A stretch of 64,000 nucleotides of DNA from assembly GCA_963832065.1 (NCBI GenBank), contig CAWHSV010000008.1:80671-144670 (forward strand), written 5' to 3'. The stretch comes from an uncultured Actinomycetes bacterium. Lineage in GTDB: Bacteria; Actinomycetota; Thermoleophilia; Solirubrobacterales; 70-9. Made by a program: the position numbers and the translations under genes. Of the stretch, positions 6,563-26,474 are shown one piece after another (the stretch's first letter is position 1; every line of letters begins with the position of its first letter). A model generated the notes under the pieces. The model did not search any database, was not told the origin of the DNA, and saw nothing but the letters and a program-made list of their open reading frames with translations.

Positions 6563-8246
6563 CTAGTGCGTGACCGCGCCCTTTGACGCGGATGAAACGG
6601 TCGCCGCATACTTGGACATGACGCCGGAGCCGAAGGGGGACTCGGGCGCCCTGTACTCGGCGACGCGTTTGGCGATCTCCTCGTCCGAGAGGTCGACGTC
6701 CATGCGACGGGTATCGATGTCGAGGGTGATCTGGTCGCCCTCGCGGATCGCGGCGATCGGGCCGCCCTTGACGGCCTCCGGGGCGACGTGGCCGAACATC
6801 AGGCCGCGGGTGGCGCCGGAGAAACGGCCGTCGGTGATCAGGGCGACGCTCTCCCCCAGTCCCTCGCCGACGATCGCCGCCGTCACCTGGAGCATCTCGC
6901 GCATCCCGGGGCCGCCGACCGGGCCCTCGTTGCGGATGACGATGATGTCGCCGGCGTCGATTTGCTGTTCCTTGACGGCACGGAAGCATTCCTCTTCGGA
7001 CTCGAAGACGCGAGCGGGGCCGGTCTGCCTGCGGCGCTCGGTGCCGGCGACCTTGATCACGGCGCCTTCGGGAGCGAGGTTCCCGCCCATGATCGCCAGC
7101 CCCCCTTCTGCCTTGACCGGATCGGCGAGAGCGCGCACCACTTCCTGTCCCGGCGCCTCGGTCGCCAGCGCTGCCTCCTCGGCGATCGTGCGACCGGTTA
7201 CGGTGATCGCCTCGCCGCGCAGGATCCCGGCCTGGGCCAGCCGCTCGAGGATCACCGGCACGCCGCCGGCGGCGTAGAGGTCGGTGGCGATGAAGCGCCC
7301 GCCCGGCTTGAGGTCGGCGAGCAGCGGCGTGGCGCGGGAAATGCGGTCGAAGTCGGCCATCTCGAGCTCGATCCCAAGCTCGTGGCCCAGCGCGATCAGG
7401 TGCAGGACGCCGTTGGTCGAGCCGCCGGAGGCGCAGACGCAGGCGATCGCGTTTTCGAGCGAGTCGCGGGTGATCACCTTGCTGGGGGTGATGTCGTCGG
7501 CGAGGACGCGCAGCACCAGCTCGCCGATCTTCTCGGCGACGGTCTGCTTGTCTTCGGCTTCGGCCGGGACCATCGCCGAGCCGCCCGGACTGATTCCCAG
7601 CGCCTCGAAGGCGCAGGCCATCGTGTTGGCGGTGAACTGGCCGCCGCAGGCGCCGGCGCCGGGGCTGGCGACCCCCTCGAGCTCGCTCAGTTCCTCGTCG
7701 CTCATGTCGCCGGCGTTGTGGGCGCCGATCGCCTCGAAAATGTCGAGGATGGTGACGTCGCGGCCGTGCCAGTGGCCGGGGGCGATCGAGCCGCCGTAGA
7801 GCAGGACCGAGGGCACGTCGAGCCGGGCCAGCGCCATCGCGCAGCCGGGGATCGTCTTGTCGCAGGCGCAGAGGGCGACGATCGCGTCGAACTGGTAGCC
7901 GCGGGCCATCAGCTCGATCGAGTCGGCGATCACCTCGCGGCTGACCAGCGAAGCCTTCATGCCCTGGGTGCCCATCGTCACGCCGTCGGAGACGGCGACG
8001 GTGTTGAACTCCATCGGCGTGCCGCCGGCGGCGCGGACGCCCTCTTTGACGTGCTCGGCGAGCCCGCGTAGGTGGAAGTTGCAGGGCATCGCCTCGGTCC
8101 AGGTGTTGGCGATCCCGACCGTCGGCCGGCTCAGCGCCTCGTCGTCGAAGCCGATGCCCTTCATGTAGGCGCGCGAGTGGGCGCGGTCGGGCCCGTCGAA
8201 GACGGTGGCGGAGCGAGGACGCGGAAGCCTGGTCGCAGTGCTGCCG

Positions 8247-15034: not shown

Positions 15035-15153
15035 GTCGGGCGGAGTCCGGGTAGGGCTGGAGCGTCTTGTACTTTTTCGCCGCCGCGACCCTCGGACGGC
15101 CGCACCCACTCCTCGAAAAAGTTAAGCGAAGCCCTACCCGGACTCCGCCCGAC
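15035..15153. repeat. Structured palindromic element, family P1, copy 1
   Basis: Perfect 24-bp outer stem (15035-15058 pairs with 15130-15153). Inner stem is actttttcg/cgaaaaagt. The apical 15-mer cctcggacggccgca is shared with 24720-24836 in reverse orientation. Confidence 0.65.
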
Positions 15154-15724: not shown

Positions 15725-17089
15725 CTAACGCCTGCGGACCTTCGGGCGCGGCGCCCCGCCGCTCATCTGCGCCAGCTGCTGCATATCGGGCATCTTGCCG
15801 CCGACCATCGAGCGCATCATCTTGCGCATCTGGTCGAACTGCTTGATCAGCTGCTTGACCTGCTGAACTTTCGTCCCCGAGCCGTTGGCGATGCGTTTGC
15901 GGCGGGAGCCGTTGATCAGCGCCGGATTGGCGCGCTCGGCCGGCGTCATCGAGAGGATGATCGCCTCGACGCGGTCCAGCTCGCCCTCGTCGACGTCGGC
16001 GTTCTTCAGCTGTTTCATCGCGCCCATGCCGGGCAGCATCCCGATCAGGCCGCTCAGCGGGCCCATTTTCCGCACCTGCCGCATCTGCGTGAGGAAGTCC
16101 TCGAGCGTGAACTGGTCCTTTTCGAGCTTCTTCTGCAGGTCCTCGGCCTGCTGCTCGTCGACCTGCTGCTCGGCTTTCTCTATCAGGCTGAGGACGTCGC
16201 CCATGCCGAGGATGCGCTGCGCCATCCGGTCGGGGTGGAACTTGTCGAAGTCCTCGAGCTTCTCGCCGGTCGAGGCGAAGAGGATCGGCTTGCCGGTGAC
16301 CGCGTTGACCGAGAGCGCGGCGCCACCGCGGGCGTCGCCGTCGAGCTTGGTCATCACCACGCCGTCGAACTCGGCCGCCTCGGCGAAGGACTCGGCGACG
16401 CCGACGGCGTCCTGTCCGGTCATCGCGTCGACCACGAGGAGGACGTCGTGCGGCTTGGTCTTCTTGCGGATCCGCGCCAGCTCGGCCATCAGCTCCTGGT
16501 CGATGTGGAGGCGGCCGGCGGTGTCGACGATCAGCACGTCCCGGCGCTCCTCGCGCGCGCGCTGCAGCGCCCACTCGGCGATCTCGACCGGGTCGGCGTC
16601 GGTCCCCTGCTGGTAGACGTGGGCGCCGGCGCGCTTGCCGACCGCGACCAGCTGGTCGACGGCGGCGGGGCGGTAGACGTCGCAGGCGGCGAGCGCCACG
16701 TCCTTTCCCTCCTTGCCGAAGAACTGGGCGAGCTTGGCGCAGGCGGTCGTCTTGCCGGAGCCCTGCAGGCCGGCCATCAGGATTACGGTCGGGCCGCTGG
16801 AGGCCATCGCCAGCTCCCGGCCGCTGCCGCCCATCAACCCGGCCAGCTCCTCGTTGACGATCTTGACCACGTGCTGGCCGGGGTCGAGGCTCTCCAGCAC
16901 CTCGTCGCCGAGACAGCGCTCCTTCAGCGTCTTCGTGAACGATTTGACGACCTTGAAGTTGACGTCGGCCTCGAGCAGGGCGAGGCGGATCTCGCGCATC
17001 GCCGCGTCGACGTCGGACTCGCTCAGCTTGCCGCGCGAGCGAACGTCCGAGAGGGTCGACTGGAGACGGTCAGAGAGCTGGTCGAACAT
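15725..17089 (-). CDS. ffh: Signal recognition particle protein Ffh
   Basis: Intact 454-aa ORF with GLQGSGKTT, DTAGRL, TKLDGDARGG, and a Met-rich M domain. Confidence 0.95.
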   Translation of the reverse strand: MFDQLSDRLQSTLSDVRSRGKLSESDVDAAMREIRLALLEADVNFKVVKSFTKTLKERCLGDEVLESLDPGQHVVKIVNEELAGLMGGSGRELAMASSGPTVILMAGLQGSGKTTACAKLAQFFGKEGKDVALAACDVYRPAAVDQLVAVGKRAGAHVYQQGTDADPVEIAEWALQRAREERRDVLIVDTAGRLHIDQELMAELARIRKKTKPHDVLLVVDAMTGQDAVGVAESFAEAAEFDGVVMTKLDGDARGGAALSVNAVTGKPILFASTGEKLEDFDKFHPDRMAQRILGMGDVLSLIEKAEQQVDEQQAEDLQKKLEKDQFTLEDFLTQMRQVRKMGPLSGLIGMLPGMGAMKQLKNADVDEGELDRVEAIILSMTPAERANPALINGSRRKRIANGSGTKVQQVKQLIKQFDQMRKMMRSMVGGKMPDMQQLAQMSGGAPRPKVRRR

Positions 17090-17117
17090 GGGTCGCCCAG
17101 CTTAGAGGGCCGCCGGA

Positions 17118-17265
17118 GGAGGGATCCGGTGGTCCCGTGGGCGAATTGAGTCGCGCGCGCTACGCGCGCCGCTCCGGATGTCGCTGCTCGCCTATGGCGA
17201 GCAGGAACCAGATTGCATTTCGCCGCCTTCGGCGACATTCGCCCACGGGACCGCCGGATCCCTCC
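17118..17265. repeat. Structured palindromic element (candidate ncRNA), family P2, copy 1
   Basis: A 29-bp closing stem (17118-17146 pairs with 17237-17265, one T-G pair) encloses three hairpins at 17153-17169, 17184-17204 and 17220-17235. Its reverse complement is homologous to copy 2. Confidence 0.6.
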
Positions 17266-17392
17266 ATCGACACTCCGTCTCAGGACGGCGAACGCTCAGC
17301 TTTTAGGAGGGCCGAGGGTCCGGGCCGCTAACACTGCTGCTGCGAACTGCGGCCCCAGGGTGAACAGCTCCCAACCTCGGTGAGCGCTCGTT

Positions 17393-17543
17393 GGGAGGGT
17401 GGTGGCGCCCCTCCGCGGGAATGTGGCCGAAAGGCCGCGATATGCAATCTGTCTCTTGCCCGCCATAGGCGGGCAGCAACATTCGGAGCAGCCCGCGATA
17501 GCGGGCGCGACAAATTCCCGCGGAGGGGCGCCAGCACCCTCCC
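17393..17543. repeat. Structured palindromic element (candidate ncRNA), family P2, copy 2
   Basis: A 30-bp closing stem (17393-17422 pairs with 17514-17543, one mismatch) encloses hairpins at 17423-17438 (GAAA loop), 17455-17476 and 17491-17506 (GATA loop). Confidence 0.6.
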
Positions 17544-17549
17544 CCACGC

Positions 17550-18551
17550 CTACTCAGCAAGCAACGCCGCCGCGTACTCGGCGGGGTCGAAGGGGCGCAG
17601 GTCCTCCAAGGTCTCGCCGACGCCGATCAGTTTCACCGGGATGCCGAGGTCGGCGGCGATCGCCAGGGCGATGCCGCCCTTGGCGGTGCCGTCGAGCTTG
17701 GTCAGGACGACGCCGTCGACGTCGACCGCCTCGGAGAAGACCTTGGCCTGGCGCAGCCCGTTCTGGCCGGTGGTGGCGTCGATCGAGATCAGCGTCTCGT
17801 GCGGCGCCTCGGGAATCTGCTTGGCGATCACGCGCCGCACCTTGGCCAGCTCCTCCATCAGGTTGGCCTGGGTGTGAAGGCGGCCGGCGGTGTCGACGAT
17901 GACGACGTCGGCGCCGCGGGCGCGGGCGGCAGAGATCGCGTCGAAGGCGACCGAGCCGGGATCGGCGCCATCGTCGCCGCGGACGAGGTCGGCGCCGGCC
18001 CGCTGCGCCCACTCGGCCAGCTGCTCGGAGGCGGCGGCGCGGTAGGTGTCGCCGGCGGCGAGCACGACGGAGAGGCCCATCTCCCTGCTCAGGTGCCAGG
18101 CGATCTTGCCGATCGTCGTCGTCTTGCCGGTGCCGTTGACGCCGACCATCATCAGCACCGCCGGCTCGCCGCTGAGGTCGATCGGCGCCCGCCCGCTGGC
18201 GGCGACCTCGGCCAGGATCTCGATCAGGCGATCGCGCACGGCGGCGCCGTCGGCGGGCACGGCCCCGGAGTCGACCTCGTGCTCGAGCCGCTCGACCACC
18301 GCCGCGGTGGTCGGGGCGCCGGCGTCGGCGAGGATCAGCGCCTCCTCCAGCCGCTCCCAGGTCTCGTCGTCGATGCGTTCGAAGAGGCTGGCCGAGATCT
18401 CCTCGGTCAGCGCCTGGCGGCTTTTCGAGAGGCTCTCGCGCAGCCGCTTGAAGACGCCGCGGCGCTCGGGCTCGGCGGCCTCAGTCTCCGGCGAGGCGTT
18501 CGCGCTCGCGCGCGAACCGAGGTCGATCGTCTCCTGCCAGGTCGTTGCCAT
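17550..18551 (-). CDS. ftsY: Signal recognition particle receptor FtsY
   Basis: Intact 333-aa ORF with GVNGTGKTTT, DTAGRL and TKLDGTAKGG. Confidence 0.9.
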   Translation of the reverse strand: MATTWQETIDLGSRASANASPETEAAEPERRGVFKRLRESLSKSRQALTEEISASLFERIDDETWERLEEALILADAGAPTTAAVVERLEHEVDSGAVPADGAAVRDRLIEILAEVAASGRAPIDLSGEPAVLMMVGVNGTGKTTTIGKIAWHLSREMGLSVVLAAGDTYRAAASEQLAEWAQRAGADLVRGDDGADPGSVAFDAISAARARGADVVIVDTAGRLHTQANLMEELAKVRRVIAKQIPEAPHETLISIDATTGQNGLRQAKVFSEAVDVDGVVLTKLDGTAKGGIALAIAADLGIPVKLIGVGETLEDLRPFDPAEYAAALLAE

Positions 18552-24679: not shown

Positions 24680-24719
24680 CGGGACGCAGCATGGTAGCGG
24701 CCGTGGGTCCGAGAGGCGA

Positions 24720-24836
24720 CTGAGAGGAACGGATACCCCTCCTCTCTCAACTTGCTCGGGTGGGGCGGCTGCGGCCGTCCGAGGTTCGGGCAACCGAGAA
24801 GTACAAGCCGTTCGGAGGGATATCCGTTCCTCTCAG
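24720..24836. repeat. Structured palindromic element, family P1, copy 2 (reverse orientation)
   Basis: A 23-bp outer stem (24720-24742 pairs with 24814-24836, one mismatch). Its reverse complement shares cttgtactt, cctcggacggccgca and aagtt.ag with 15035-15153. The inner-stem changes are compensatory. Confidence 0.65.
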
Positions 24837-25328
24837 TAGGTTGCTCGGACTACGGCTAGGTCGGCTTGCTGCCAGGCGATTTCGCCGTCGCACCAGGTCA
24901 CGAGGTCGGATAGCTGCTTTTTGCTGAAGACGTCGCCGATGACCAGGGAGCGGGATTGGCCTTTGACTTGGCGGCAGAGGTTCTGGCGCTGCTCGTCGTT
25001 CGAGCTGGTTGGCGGAGAGGACGGAGACGACTAGGTCCCAGGGGCCGTCGGGGAGTGGGTCCTCCATGCGGGCGAGCTGGACGTCGTCGTAGGTCTGGCG
25101 GGCGCGGAAGACCATGTCGGGGCTGGCGTCGAGGCCGACCACCCAGGCGTCGGGGTGGGCCTCGATCAGCCGCCGCGTGGTCTCCCCCGTTCCCATCCCC
25201 AGCTCCAGCACGCGCTCGGGCGGGAACGGGATCGCCGCTATGGCTTGGTCCTGGAGCTCGTCGTAGCCGGGGATCTCGGCGCGGATCCGCTCCAGATAGA
25301 CCTCGGGTTTCCAGTCGAATCGATCCAT
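24833..25328 (-). CDS. Small class I SAM-dependent methyltransferase, one frameshift near 25000
   Basis: MDRFDWKPEVYLERIRAEIPGYDELQD...VLELGMGTGETT...VVGLDASPDM. After VSVLS the frame shifts to DEQRQNLCRQVKG.SRSLVIGDV... The stop is at 24833-24835, inside the P1 arm. Confidence 0.6.
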
Positions 25329-25909: not shown

Positions 25910-26474
25910 CGCTGGCAGGAGGGCGGGGACGCCCTCTCAAAACACTCCAGCGCGAAGCGCGTTTTGAGAGGGCGTCCCCGCCCTCCCCAACGCCTAAGGC
26001 TGCTCGTCCAGCTCGGCGACCGGCTTCGTCCTCGCGGCCGGCGAGACGATCGCGGCCGCGCTGGACGGCCGCGAGGAACTTCTGCAGGTTGACTTCAAGC
26101 GTGTTGAGGATCTCGTCGGCGTAGTCCTCGGCGCCGAGGCGGATTTCGCGCTCGCGGGTGCGGGCGTCCTCGACGATCTCGTCGGCGGCGCGCTCGGCCT
26201 GCTTGGTGACCTCCTCGTCGGAGATCAGGCGGGCCTGCTGCTCGCGGGCCTCGCGGACGATCCGCTCCGCCTCGCGCTTGGCCTCGGCCAGCATCTCCTG
26301 GCGCTCCTTGACGATCCAGCGCGCCTGCTTGATCTCCTCGGGGATCGTCGCGCGCATCTGGTCGAGGAGGTCGTAGATCTCCTCGCGGTCCACACGCACC
26401 TGATCCGTCAGCGGGACGGGGCGGGCGTTGTGGACGACGTCGTCCAGCTTGTCTATGAGAACGAGTACGTCCAT
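25887..26474 (-). CDS. Coiled-coil protein (ATP-synthase-subunit-b-like heptad region), function unknown
   Basis: The 195-aa [17 protein letters not shown]...[34 protein letters not shown] is highly charged coiled coil. Its last ~40 codons run through the 25918-25986 palindrome. The true stop may be the TAG at 25994, reached after a frameshift. Confidence 0.5.
25918..25986. terminator. Perfect 26-bp inverted repeat (long hairpin) between convergent genes; possible bidirectional terminator
   Basis: ggagggcggggacgccctctcaaaac (25918-25943) pairs perfectly with 25961-25986. The 17-nt loop contains gcgc-gaa-gcgc. No U-tract follows on either strand. Confidence 0.4.

Follow-up and report, generated by a model that had tools for sequence, protein, structure and literature searches.

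Two large folded arms occupy the ffh–ftsY spacer

The 64-kb stretch of Solirubrobacterales DNA analysed here (the window, GC content ~71%) carries the genes ffh and ftsY separated by a gap of 460 nt, which holds two long inverted repeats. We found that these repeats close two elaborately folded arms (arm 1 and arm 2), that the arms are both ends of one inserted unit (the module), and that this unit belongs to a previously undescribed, insertion-polymorphic, multi-copy repeat family. The features of the locus are listed in Table 1.

A first-pass annotation of the window had described two folded elements of ~150 nt in this gap, and the predicted folds bear this out. Arm 1 folds with −111.6 kcal/mol (z = −12.2) and arm 2 with −117.6 kcal/mol (z = −11.7), against a mean of ~−65 kcal/mol for dinucleotide shuffles, of which 0 of 200 were as good in either case. 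The near-perfect closing stems it reported are likewise present, with 97% complementarity over 29 nt in arm 1 (17118–17146 with 17237–17265, inverted repeat I3) and 94% over 33 nt in arm 2 (17393–17425 with 17511–17543, inverted repeat I2). When one interior is inverted the two are homologous, as claimed (17163–17229 and 17431–17497, 84% over 67 nt), and the stretches annotated as conserved and unpaired, ATGCAATCTG and ACATYCGGAGC, occur in one exact copy each per arm. The closing stems had been called unrelated to each other; they are not wholly so, as both start with GGAGGG, end with CCCTCC and have a GAAT/ATTC base. Read on the strand that bears ATGCAATCTG, each arm consists of the closing stem and three hairpins (P2, P3 and P4), and motif and covariance-model (CM) searches found only these two copies of the four-way-junction core within the window.

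The comparison with Rfam suggested in the first-pass annotation yielded no known family. There were no matches to Rfam 15 (SRP RNA, 6S, Y RNA, ribozymes, HEARO and IS605-orfB motifs among its families) at the gathering threshold in the 64-kb window, the best sub-threshold match in 17000–17650 scored 24.5 bits against a threshold of 60, and a search for tRNA and tmRNA found none. The ffh and ftsY context prompted us to consider signal recognition particle RNA, which we rejected because of this missing Rfam match and because the element is found in many unrelated contexts.

Table 1. Coordinates of the ftsY–ffh module and its flanking genes in the window.
Feature	Position	Strand	Basis
ffh	15725–17089	-	Pfam
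Whole inserted module (tail, class-2 arm, spacer, class-1 arm, tail)	17110–17549	.	Filled vs empty sites; edges ± up to 3 nt
Arm 1 3′ tail TCCGGCGG, outer module end	17110–17117	-	Filled vs empty sites; C-rich tail in 174 arms
Arm 1, class-1 closing stem, type-A core, pointing to ffh start	17118–17265	-	CM R1, 160.4 bits, E = 6e-32; fold
Arm 1 closing stem, 3′ half, paired with 17237–17265	17118–17146	-	Inverted repeat I3
Arm 1 hairpin P4, C-GUA-G loop	17153–17169	-	Fold, covariation
Arm 1 conserved ACATCCGGAGC, P3a 3′ strand	17171–17181	-	Motif
Arm 1 hairpin P3, C-AUA-G loop	17184–17204	-	Fold, covariation
Arm 1 conserved junction ATGCAATCTG, P3a 5′ strand, partner CGGAGC	17209–17218	-	Motif, covariation
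Arm 1 hairpin P2, C-GAA-G loop, conserved U.G at base	17220–17236	-	Fold, covariation
Arm 1 closing stem, 5′ half (GGAGGGATCCGG...GAAT)	17237–17265	-	Inverted repeat, fold
Spacer between the two 5′ ends, 127 nt	17266–17392	.	Fold z = −0.6 and −2.0
Arm 2, class-2 closing stem, type-A core, pointing to ftsY 3′ end	17393–17543	+	CM R1, 142.2 bits, E = 5e-28; fold
Arm 2 closing stem, 5′ half	17393–17422	+	Inverted repeat I2
Arm 2 hairpin P2, GAAA loop	17423–17438	+	Fold
Arm 2 conserved ATGCAATCTG	17442–17451	+	Motif
Arm 2 hairpin P3, C-AUA-G loop	17456–17476	+	Fold
Arm 2 conserved ACATTCGGAGC	17479–17489	+	Motif
Arm 2 hairpin P4, GAUA loop	17491–17506	+	Fold
Arm 2 closing stem, 3′ half	17514–17543	+	Inverted repeat I2
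Arm 2 3′ tail CCACGC, abutting ftsY stop codon (CTA, 17550–17552)	17544–17549	+	Filled vs empty sites
ftsY	17550–18551	-	Pfam

Compensatory changes preserve a stem-closed four-way junction

Across the family the arms are 146–157 nt long, with a closing stem of 28–30 bp (GGAGGG...GAAT / ATTC...CCCTCC) capped by a four-way junction. In the core, P2 ends in a C-GAA-G loop and contains one near-invariant U.G pair, P3a (GC-AA-UCUG / CGGA-GC) bears P3 with its C-AUA-G loop, and P4 ends in C-GCA-G, C-GAA-G or C-GUA-G. The bases joining the junction helices are invariant, and the core contains two near-invariant U.G pairs in total. Pairing of P3a is supported by variant arms, where it forms a perfect GCAATCTGA/TCAGATTGC helix. 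Two core types were distinguished, type A in 91 arms and type B in 61. The loops are mostly C-GNA-G or C-AUA-G triloops, a loop type characteristic of stable DNA hairpins.

From 22 copies we built a covariance model, which recovered 33 arms in 20 sources; the fold was assessed on the alignment of these 33 arms. Standard pairs fill 97.8% of the pair cells, compared with 36–49% when the 3′ partners are slid by 1–3 columns. Changes on both sides are found at 35 of 51 pairs (336 cells), and none of 500 shuffles reached any of five covariation measures. The covariation proposed in the first-pass annotation could not be assessed from the two copies in the window, which are too few, while across 33 arms it is overwhelming. 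With covariation at 35 of 51 pairs and no terminator-like site, its view of a selected fold rather than a plain terminator holds. That the arms arose as palindromes by chance, or are ordinary terminators of a GC-rich spacer, where the ~71% GC of the genome makes hairpins common, is already refuted by the fold scores (z ~−12), by the CM matches and by covariation among the 222 homologous arms described below, and the scan showed no terminator features; we give this explanation practically no credence.

Comparison of 174 arms defines the closing stem and its limits. The 5′ half has the consensus GGAGGG..CCGGT..CCTC, pairing is at least 92% up to 24 bp beyond the GAATG base before falling to background, and the sequence after each stem is C-rich. 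We considered whether the 5′ flank and 3′ tail extend the stem, and rejected this, as their pairing is weak and inconsistent. Sequence conservation at the termini is confined to GGAGGG/CCCTCC and a few boxes; the remainder covaries. Each stem half was also seen to hold GGAGG(G) and CCTC(C) ~10 nt apart, and is therefore itself a small palindrome, so that each arm presents, on either strand, two Shine-Dalgarno-like and two anti-Shine-Dalgarno-like boxes.

The arms are the two ends of one module inserted after ftsY

A homology search with the window Ffh returned many close relatives, including an identical protein of 454 amino acids (P0001). In four of the relatives (L121–L124) the distance between ftsY and ffh is only 10–35 nt; their Ffh proteins are 87–95% identical to that of the window, and their genes 86–94% identical over the first 860 nt of ffh. 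With an oblique marking the boundary, the empty junction in L121–L124 reads ...GAGTAG/CCCCTCTAAGCTG...GTG, ending with the ffh start, and is also given as ...GAGTAG/CCCCTCTAAGCTGAGCTGCC/GTG. The corresponding junction in the window reads TAG/GCGTGGG, then arm 2, spacer and arm 1, then TCCGGCGG/CCCTCTAAGCTG...ATG. From the filled and empty junctions it follows that ~440 bp were inserted directly after the ftsY stop codon, and no target-site duplication is visible at this site beyond a boundary ambiguity of 1–3 nt. The two arms, annotated as two elements of the ffh–ftsY spacer, are thus both ends of one inserted unit, which is a dispersed rather than a locus-specific repeat and is polymorphic for presence at this site.

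The same point is filled in the window, in L064 (OY970074.1), and in L174, L206 and L211, and a single arm is found there in L199. In a neighbour-joining tree of ffh the filled and empty sites interleave, and the nearest relative of the window, L121 (93.6% nucleotide identity), has an empty site. The interleaving has one of three causes: the module was gained repeatedly, was lost precisely and repeatedly, or was exchanged by homologous recombination. Among the arms at this site the cores are 67–98% identical and the stems 62–94%, with 76–86% identity at third codon positions of ffh, and orthologous copies keep their pairing by compensatory changes. The window and L064 have the same arm-2 stem and differing cores (type A in the window and type B in L064). 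Cores of types A and B swap inside a kept stem. The arms at this site are mosaics, and their copies evidently exchange sequence with paralogues. Although empty at this site, L124 has an arm elsewhere in the cluster (at 619–713, ~750 nt upstream of ftsY, between a WS/DGAT gene and a small open reading frame (ORF)), and close relatives therefore differ in their insertion sites.

A further hairpin of the window (15035–15153, z ~−7) lies between the stop of khpA and the start of trmD, with a perfect 24-bp stem and a 71-nt interior that carries the module-spacer block CGACCCTCGGACGGCC. It is present in the window and L121, where the two copies differ by two compensatory stem changes, and absent from L122–L124. 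Comparison of the filled and empty sites again showed no target-site duplication.

A dispersed repeat family in Solirubrobacterales

Soil is rich in Solirubrobacterales, bacteria whose genetics has hardly been studied. When one genome per species was scanned with a loose core pattern, ~100 of 120 matches arose by chance, and all true relatives came from metagenome-assembled genomes (MAGs) of Solirubrobacterales, Thermoleophilia or Actinomycetes. A stricter pattern applied to soil metagenomes, followed by CM and nhmmer searches, brought the collection to 222 arms in 141 loci. The sources are Solirubrobacterales MAGs and soil metagenomes, and every match in a named genome is again to a Solirubrobacterales, Thermoleophilia or Actinomycetes MAG. 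There was no match to the family in viral contigs, PLSDB plasmids or INPHARED phages, and a phage, plasmid or virus origin was rejected on this basis.

Gene contexts vary from locus to locus. Some sites recur, namely downstream of rpoD, downstream of atpC and upstream of ffh (6–10 contigs each), and those after rpoD and atpC are kept in 9–10 contigs each. Arms facing gene ends (99) outnumber those facing gene starts (41). At least four modules lie on one chromosome of 2.5 Mb, OY970074.1 (L035, L064, L087 and L092). Modules on the same contig, there and in CAWEUG010000002.1 (L003 and L033), are 75, 78, 85 and 294 kb apart; this hints at regularity, with too few points to interpret and incomplete detection. 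Over positions 7300–7980 of L054, in runs X19 and X20, many assembled contigs stop within arms and the arm depth is 6–19 times that of the flanks, showing that the repeat breaks short-read soil assemblies.

Each module is a heterodimer of outward-pointing arms with a strand-specific fold

In all 81 two-arm loci the arms are arranged head-to-head (-,+) with their 5′ ends facing, as had been proposed for the pair in the window. The core is never flipped within its stem, and all cores point outward. Each pair is a heterodimer of one class-1 arm (stem GGAGGGRTCYGGTNG...) and one class-2 arm (stem ...GGTACCCCTCC...). At the class-2 position quite different interiors are tolerated, as is a bare hairpin whose stem is of the same style. 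An arm that faces a gene start is more often class-1 (28/42 vs 11/45, p = 0.02, with copies that are non-independent).

The spacers of the 81 two-arm loci have a median length of 122 nt (interquartile range 103–135) and are at least 77 nt long except at three loci (22, 42 and 43 nt). The spacer in the window is without significant structure of its own, and contains the conserved block GGACCCTCGGCCCTCC at 17306–17321 (- strand), with GAGTGTCGAT adjoining the arm. Upstream of class-1 arms the conserved block reads (T)GAACCCTCGGCCGTCC, ~10 nt, CGTGTCGTT, then GGAGGG; within 1–50 nt of the arm it can also be described as (T)GAACC, ~18 nt, CGTGTC, 3–5 nt and GGAGGG. This block resembles promoters of extracytoplasmic function sigma factors, such as the M. 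tuberculosis SigL consensus. A GAACC box with CGTGTY at the right spacing is found in 12 of 84 class-1 and 0 of 69 class-2 upstream regions.

At pairs dominated by Watson-Crick combinations in the 33 arms, G.U outnumbers A.C by 37 to 8, and in the closing stems of 163 unique arms by 72 to 36 (p = 7e-4, copies not independent). The fold is therefore favoured on one strand, as a palindrome acting in double-stranded form would be symmetric in this respect.

Transcription and the RNA-based explanations

A promoter and terminator consensus scan found no sigma-70-type promoter and, in 16900–17800, no intrinsic terminator (a hairpin followed by a T/U run; 0 sites, no U-tract), and the window's own sequence was in no RNA run searched. 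Six soil metatranscriptome assemblies contain arm-like sequence, at word depths of 2–35. The contigs, which belong to a related module, run 45–255 nt past both arm ends without a pile-up of ends at the arms, and, being unstranded and of low depth, are uninformative on RNA ends. In one metatranscriptome (X23), the depth declines between the rpoD 3′ end and the arm, inside which it ends.

These data bear on two explanations that in part overlap the mobile module we favour below. Under the first, the module is a mobile cassette of two divergent small RNA genes, from which discrete, stable and trans-acting RNAs, closed by pairing of their 5′ and 3′ ends in the long stem, would be transcribed outward from back-to-back promoters in the spacer. 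The uniform outward direction of the cores, spacers that mostly leave room for two promoters, the promoter-like block upstream of class-1 arms, the invariant junction with its two conserved U.G pairs, the G.U excess on the outward strand and the arm sequence in six metatranscriptome assemblies all speak for RNA. Discrete RNAs are harder to reconcile with contigs that overrun both arm ends, with a GAACC box in only a minority of upstream regions, and with the lack of a sigma-70-type promoter or terminator in the scan; moreover, the class-2 position accepts different interiors or a bare hairpin, triloops take the place of the tetraloops usual in RNA, and Rfam has no match. The triloops, the insertion without duplication and the class-2 tolerance count instead for single-stranded DNA. 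We regard a cassette of small RNA genes as rather unlikely, while keeping it in serious consideration. A related proposal, in which the arm is a new structured-RNA class (a four-way junction on a 30-bp stem) transcribed outward from a spacer promoter, and the module a mobile RNA-gene pair present in dozens per genome, is similarly doubtful; if the arms are RNA genes, their RNAs could scaffold or guide a protein that moves or maintains the module.

The second explanation is a domesticated cis-acting insulator or terminator, whose hairpins would stop or process read-through or stabilise upstream mRNA 3′ ends, with the inverted pair making the device independent of orientation. It would account for the preference of arms for gene 3′ ends, for the modules kept after rpoD and atpC, for the fall in depth at the rpoD arm in X23 and for the compensatory changes that preserve pairing in orthologous copies, and there are precedents in REP (PMC3733652), ERIC and Correia elements. 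A simple hairpin would suffice for such a role, though, which leaves the invariant junction core and the strict class-1/class-2 heterodimer unexplained. In addition, mRNAs of the flanking genes traverse the proximal arm in antisense, although it is the outward strand that shows the G.U excess; there is no U-tract; and the ftsY–ffh module lies within an operon, with an essential gene downstream. We consider a cis-acting device of this kind improbable.

Comparison with known mobile and structured elements

Of the known systems, REP/BIME/REPIN elements, with the GTAG- and CGTC-tagged REP superfamilies among them, come closest to the module. Both are multi-copy, non-coding and intergenic, mostly downstream of genes; both are built of head-to-head palindromic units, often as two-type heterodimers with a linker; and both have short unpaired tails, differ in presence between strains, keep their hairpin by compensatory change and are targeted by the IS110 family. 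Tagged REPs likewise form head-to-head heterodimers downstream of genes, and the phyla reported for them do not include Actinomycetota (Thermoleophilia) (PMC3733652). The module departs from REPs in size, as REP hairpins are 20–40 nt long and its arms, at ~150 nt with a 28–30-bp stem and a conserved four-way junction, do not fit a definition by short hairpins. The unpaired GTAG/CGTC tag is faint, seen as a weak CGT/(C/T)GTC-like preference 3–9 nt 5′ of the stem that a strict pattern finds in 36 of 174 arms, and no RAYT gene was found among the 1326 ORFs flanking modules.

Miniature inverted-repeat transposable elements (MITEs) that fold as RNA hairpins, such as Correia/NEMIS in Neisseria, ERIC in enterobacteria and RUP/BOX in pneumococcus, resemble the module in their size of ~100–450 bp with inverted ends, insertion polymorphism, intergenic and intra-operon positions, co-transcription and a possible outward promoter. 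The module is a small non-coding unit with presence/absence polymorphism between related genomes, and in this broad sense is MITE-like. Unlike these elements it has no visible target-site duplication at ftsY–ffh and no cognate insertion sequence was seen, and its ends, each itself a hairpin, are conserved in fold rather than in sequence. A classical DDE-type MITE was rejected for want of both the duplication and sequence-conserved terminal repeats. The first-pass annotation had set its elements apart from a simple MITE with many copies and identical terminal repeats beside transposases; the family comes close to this in its many copies, but its terminal repeats are not identical, no duplication is visible and no transposase adjoins it.

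The ends of IS200/IS605 elements, palindrome-associated transposable elements (PATEs) and TnpB omega-RNA share with the module an absence of duplication and an apparently precise presence or absence, and IS200/IS605 ends are also structured, read on a single strand, with a short tail past the hairpin foot. Their hairpins are small and on the same strand at both ends, whereas the arms of the module are on opposite strands. No conserved target tetranucleotide or flank motif was found at modules, and no TnpA or TnpB gene nearby; with arms on opposite strands and no fixed flank motif, an IS200/IS605-derived PATE was rejected. By analogy with the omega-RNA at the right end of TnpB elements, each outward arm could also be a guide-RNA-like scaffold that runs into the flank, with a trans-encoded nuclease homing or retaining the module. 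The geometry alone fits, with the 3′ end of a 150-nt scaffold 6–8 nt from the element boundary on both sides, and the lack of a visible target-site duplication and the presence/absence pattern resemble precise insertion or excision. However, no nuclease gene, be it TnpB, IscB or another, was seen close to a module, the arms have no likeness to Rfam RNA families, and no motif common to both flanks could act as a target-adjacent motif. We judge this explanation very improbable.

Integron attC sites, like the arms, keep their structure while the stem sequence varies, and are strand-specific as single-stranded recombination sites. An attC site varies at its centre and is conserved at its ends; in the module it is the centre that is conserved, and there is no integrase or cassette array. 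Parvovirus inverted terminal repeats (ITRs) and the telomere 3′ overhangs of Streptomyces resemble the arms in their multi-branch fold of ~150 nt with C-GNA-G triloops at each strand's 3′ end. Unlike them, the module is chromosome-internal, its core shows no flip/flop, and there is no Tap/Tpg or Rep context. Some module stems read CCCGCGGAG..GGTACC, and Streptomyces Palindrome I is CCCGCGGAGCGGG; the two are close, but homology to the telomere was rejected and the match judged most likely to be chance, because the motif is not conserved across copies. A retron msr-msd was also discarded, as there is no adjacent reverse transcriptase, the neighbours are ffh and ftsY, and contexts differ between loci.

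A mobile palindromic module is the favoured interpretation

We favour, with a little more than even confidence, the interpretation that the ftsY–ffh insertion is one copy of a Solirubrobacterales-specific, non-coding, two-armed mobile palindromic module, REP/BIME/REPIN- or MITE-like in kind. In its favour we count the family's size and taxonomic confinement, the selected and strand-specific fold, the insertion, turnover and sequence exchange at ftsY–ffh, the preference for gene ends, the like behaviour of the khpA–trmD hairpin, the IS110 element inside an L003 arm, the triloops and the parallel with tagged REPs. Such a module may spread, or be replaced, by way of an intermediate with single-stranded arms. 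The folded arm would be recognised in trans by a protein, through its stem with GGAGGG/CCCTCC boxes and its invariant junction, and only copies that keep the fold would propagate or be retained, which would explain the covariation. An HUH/Y1-type 'peel-and-paste' transposase or a recombinase is our guess for the enzyme. Once inserted, the module would be co-transcribed with its neighbours, here within an ftsY–ffh transcript, and its 30-bp hairpins would then probably serve as signals for RNA processing, stability or termination, like REP, ERIC and Correia elements.

Several observations weigh against this interpretation. No transposase or recombinase recurs beside modules in ~140 loci: all-vs-all clustering of 1326 flanking ORFs found no recurrent transposase family, only housekeeping orthologues. 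No autonomous version, with arms flanking a gene, is among the fetched loci. As the copies are not nearly identical to one another, there is no sign of a recent burst, and many sites are conserved across 9–10 contigs, as after rpoD and atpC. A four-way junction with invariant bases and two near-invariant U.G pairs is more usual in a functional RNA than at transposon ends, and the occurrence of arm-like sequence in soil metatranscriptome assemblies also counts against a mobile element. The interleaving of filled and empty sites could also arise if strains exchange DNA by homologous recombination, instead of by insertion or excision that recurs, and copies per genome are known only as a lower bound, from the OY970074.1 modules.

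The only two long arm-to-arm gaps were considered as autonomous elements and rejected as secondary insertions. In L003 (5420–6908) an insert of ~1.3 kb interrupts the class-2 arm after P2; it carries a frameshifted IS110-family transposase (Pfam DEDD_Tnp_IS110 and Transposase_20) and is found in no other fetched locus; this is an IS110 insertion into the arm. IS110 elements target REP-like repeats. The gap in L210 apparently contains a coding-sequence fragment, judged by eye only.

This would be the first described interspersed repeat family of Solirubrobacterales, and an unusually elaborate one, with a heterodimer of 150-nt arms, an invariant core and duplication-free insertion even in the essential operons ftsY–ffh and khpA–trmD. 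The conserved junction implies a specific binding partner, and its discovery could lead to a new system of transposition or recombination, or to a new RNA–protein complex. In practical terms, the family offers a ready strain-typing marker in Solirubrobacterales, and a repeat that breaks metagenome assemblies.

Related hairpins

Further hairpins in the window resemble parts of the module. A homologue of the khpA–trmD hairpin lies in the opposite orientation at 24719–24837 (z ~−6 to −7), with a 24-bp stem ending ...GGATACCCCTCC and an interior that contains CTTGTACTT and GAACCTCGGACGGCC. At 25918–25986 there is a 'mini-arm' (z = −11.2), in which a perfect 26-bp stem, GGAGGGCGGGGACGCCCTCTCAAAAC, encloses only a GCGCGAAGCGC hairpin and is followed by the family tail CCCAACGCC; it lies apparently between convergent genes, judged by eye only.

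Among the collected loci, many arms that seemed 'solo' have a partner hairpin with the GGAGGG...CCCTCC stem style and another interior. The loci concerned are L144, L162, L214 and L041; L152, L136 and L236; L153, L172, L218 and L127; L177, L135 and L204; and L212 and L219. At least four further interior types were seen, of which one contains the spacer block in inverted form and two are divergent four-way-junction cores. With partners of this kind, the family is therefore a superfamily of nested palindromes.

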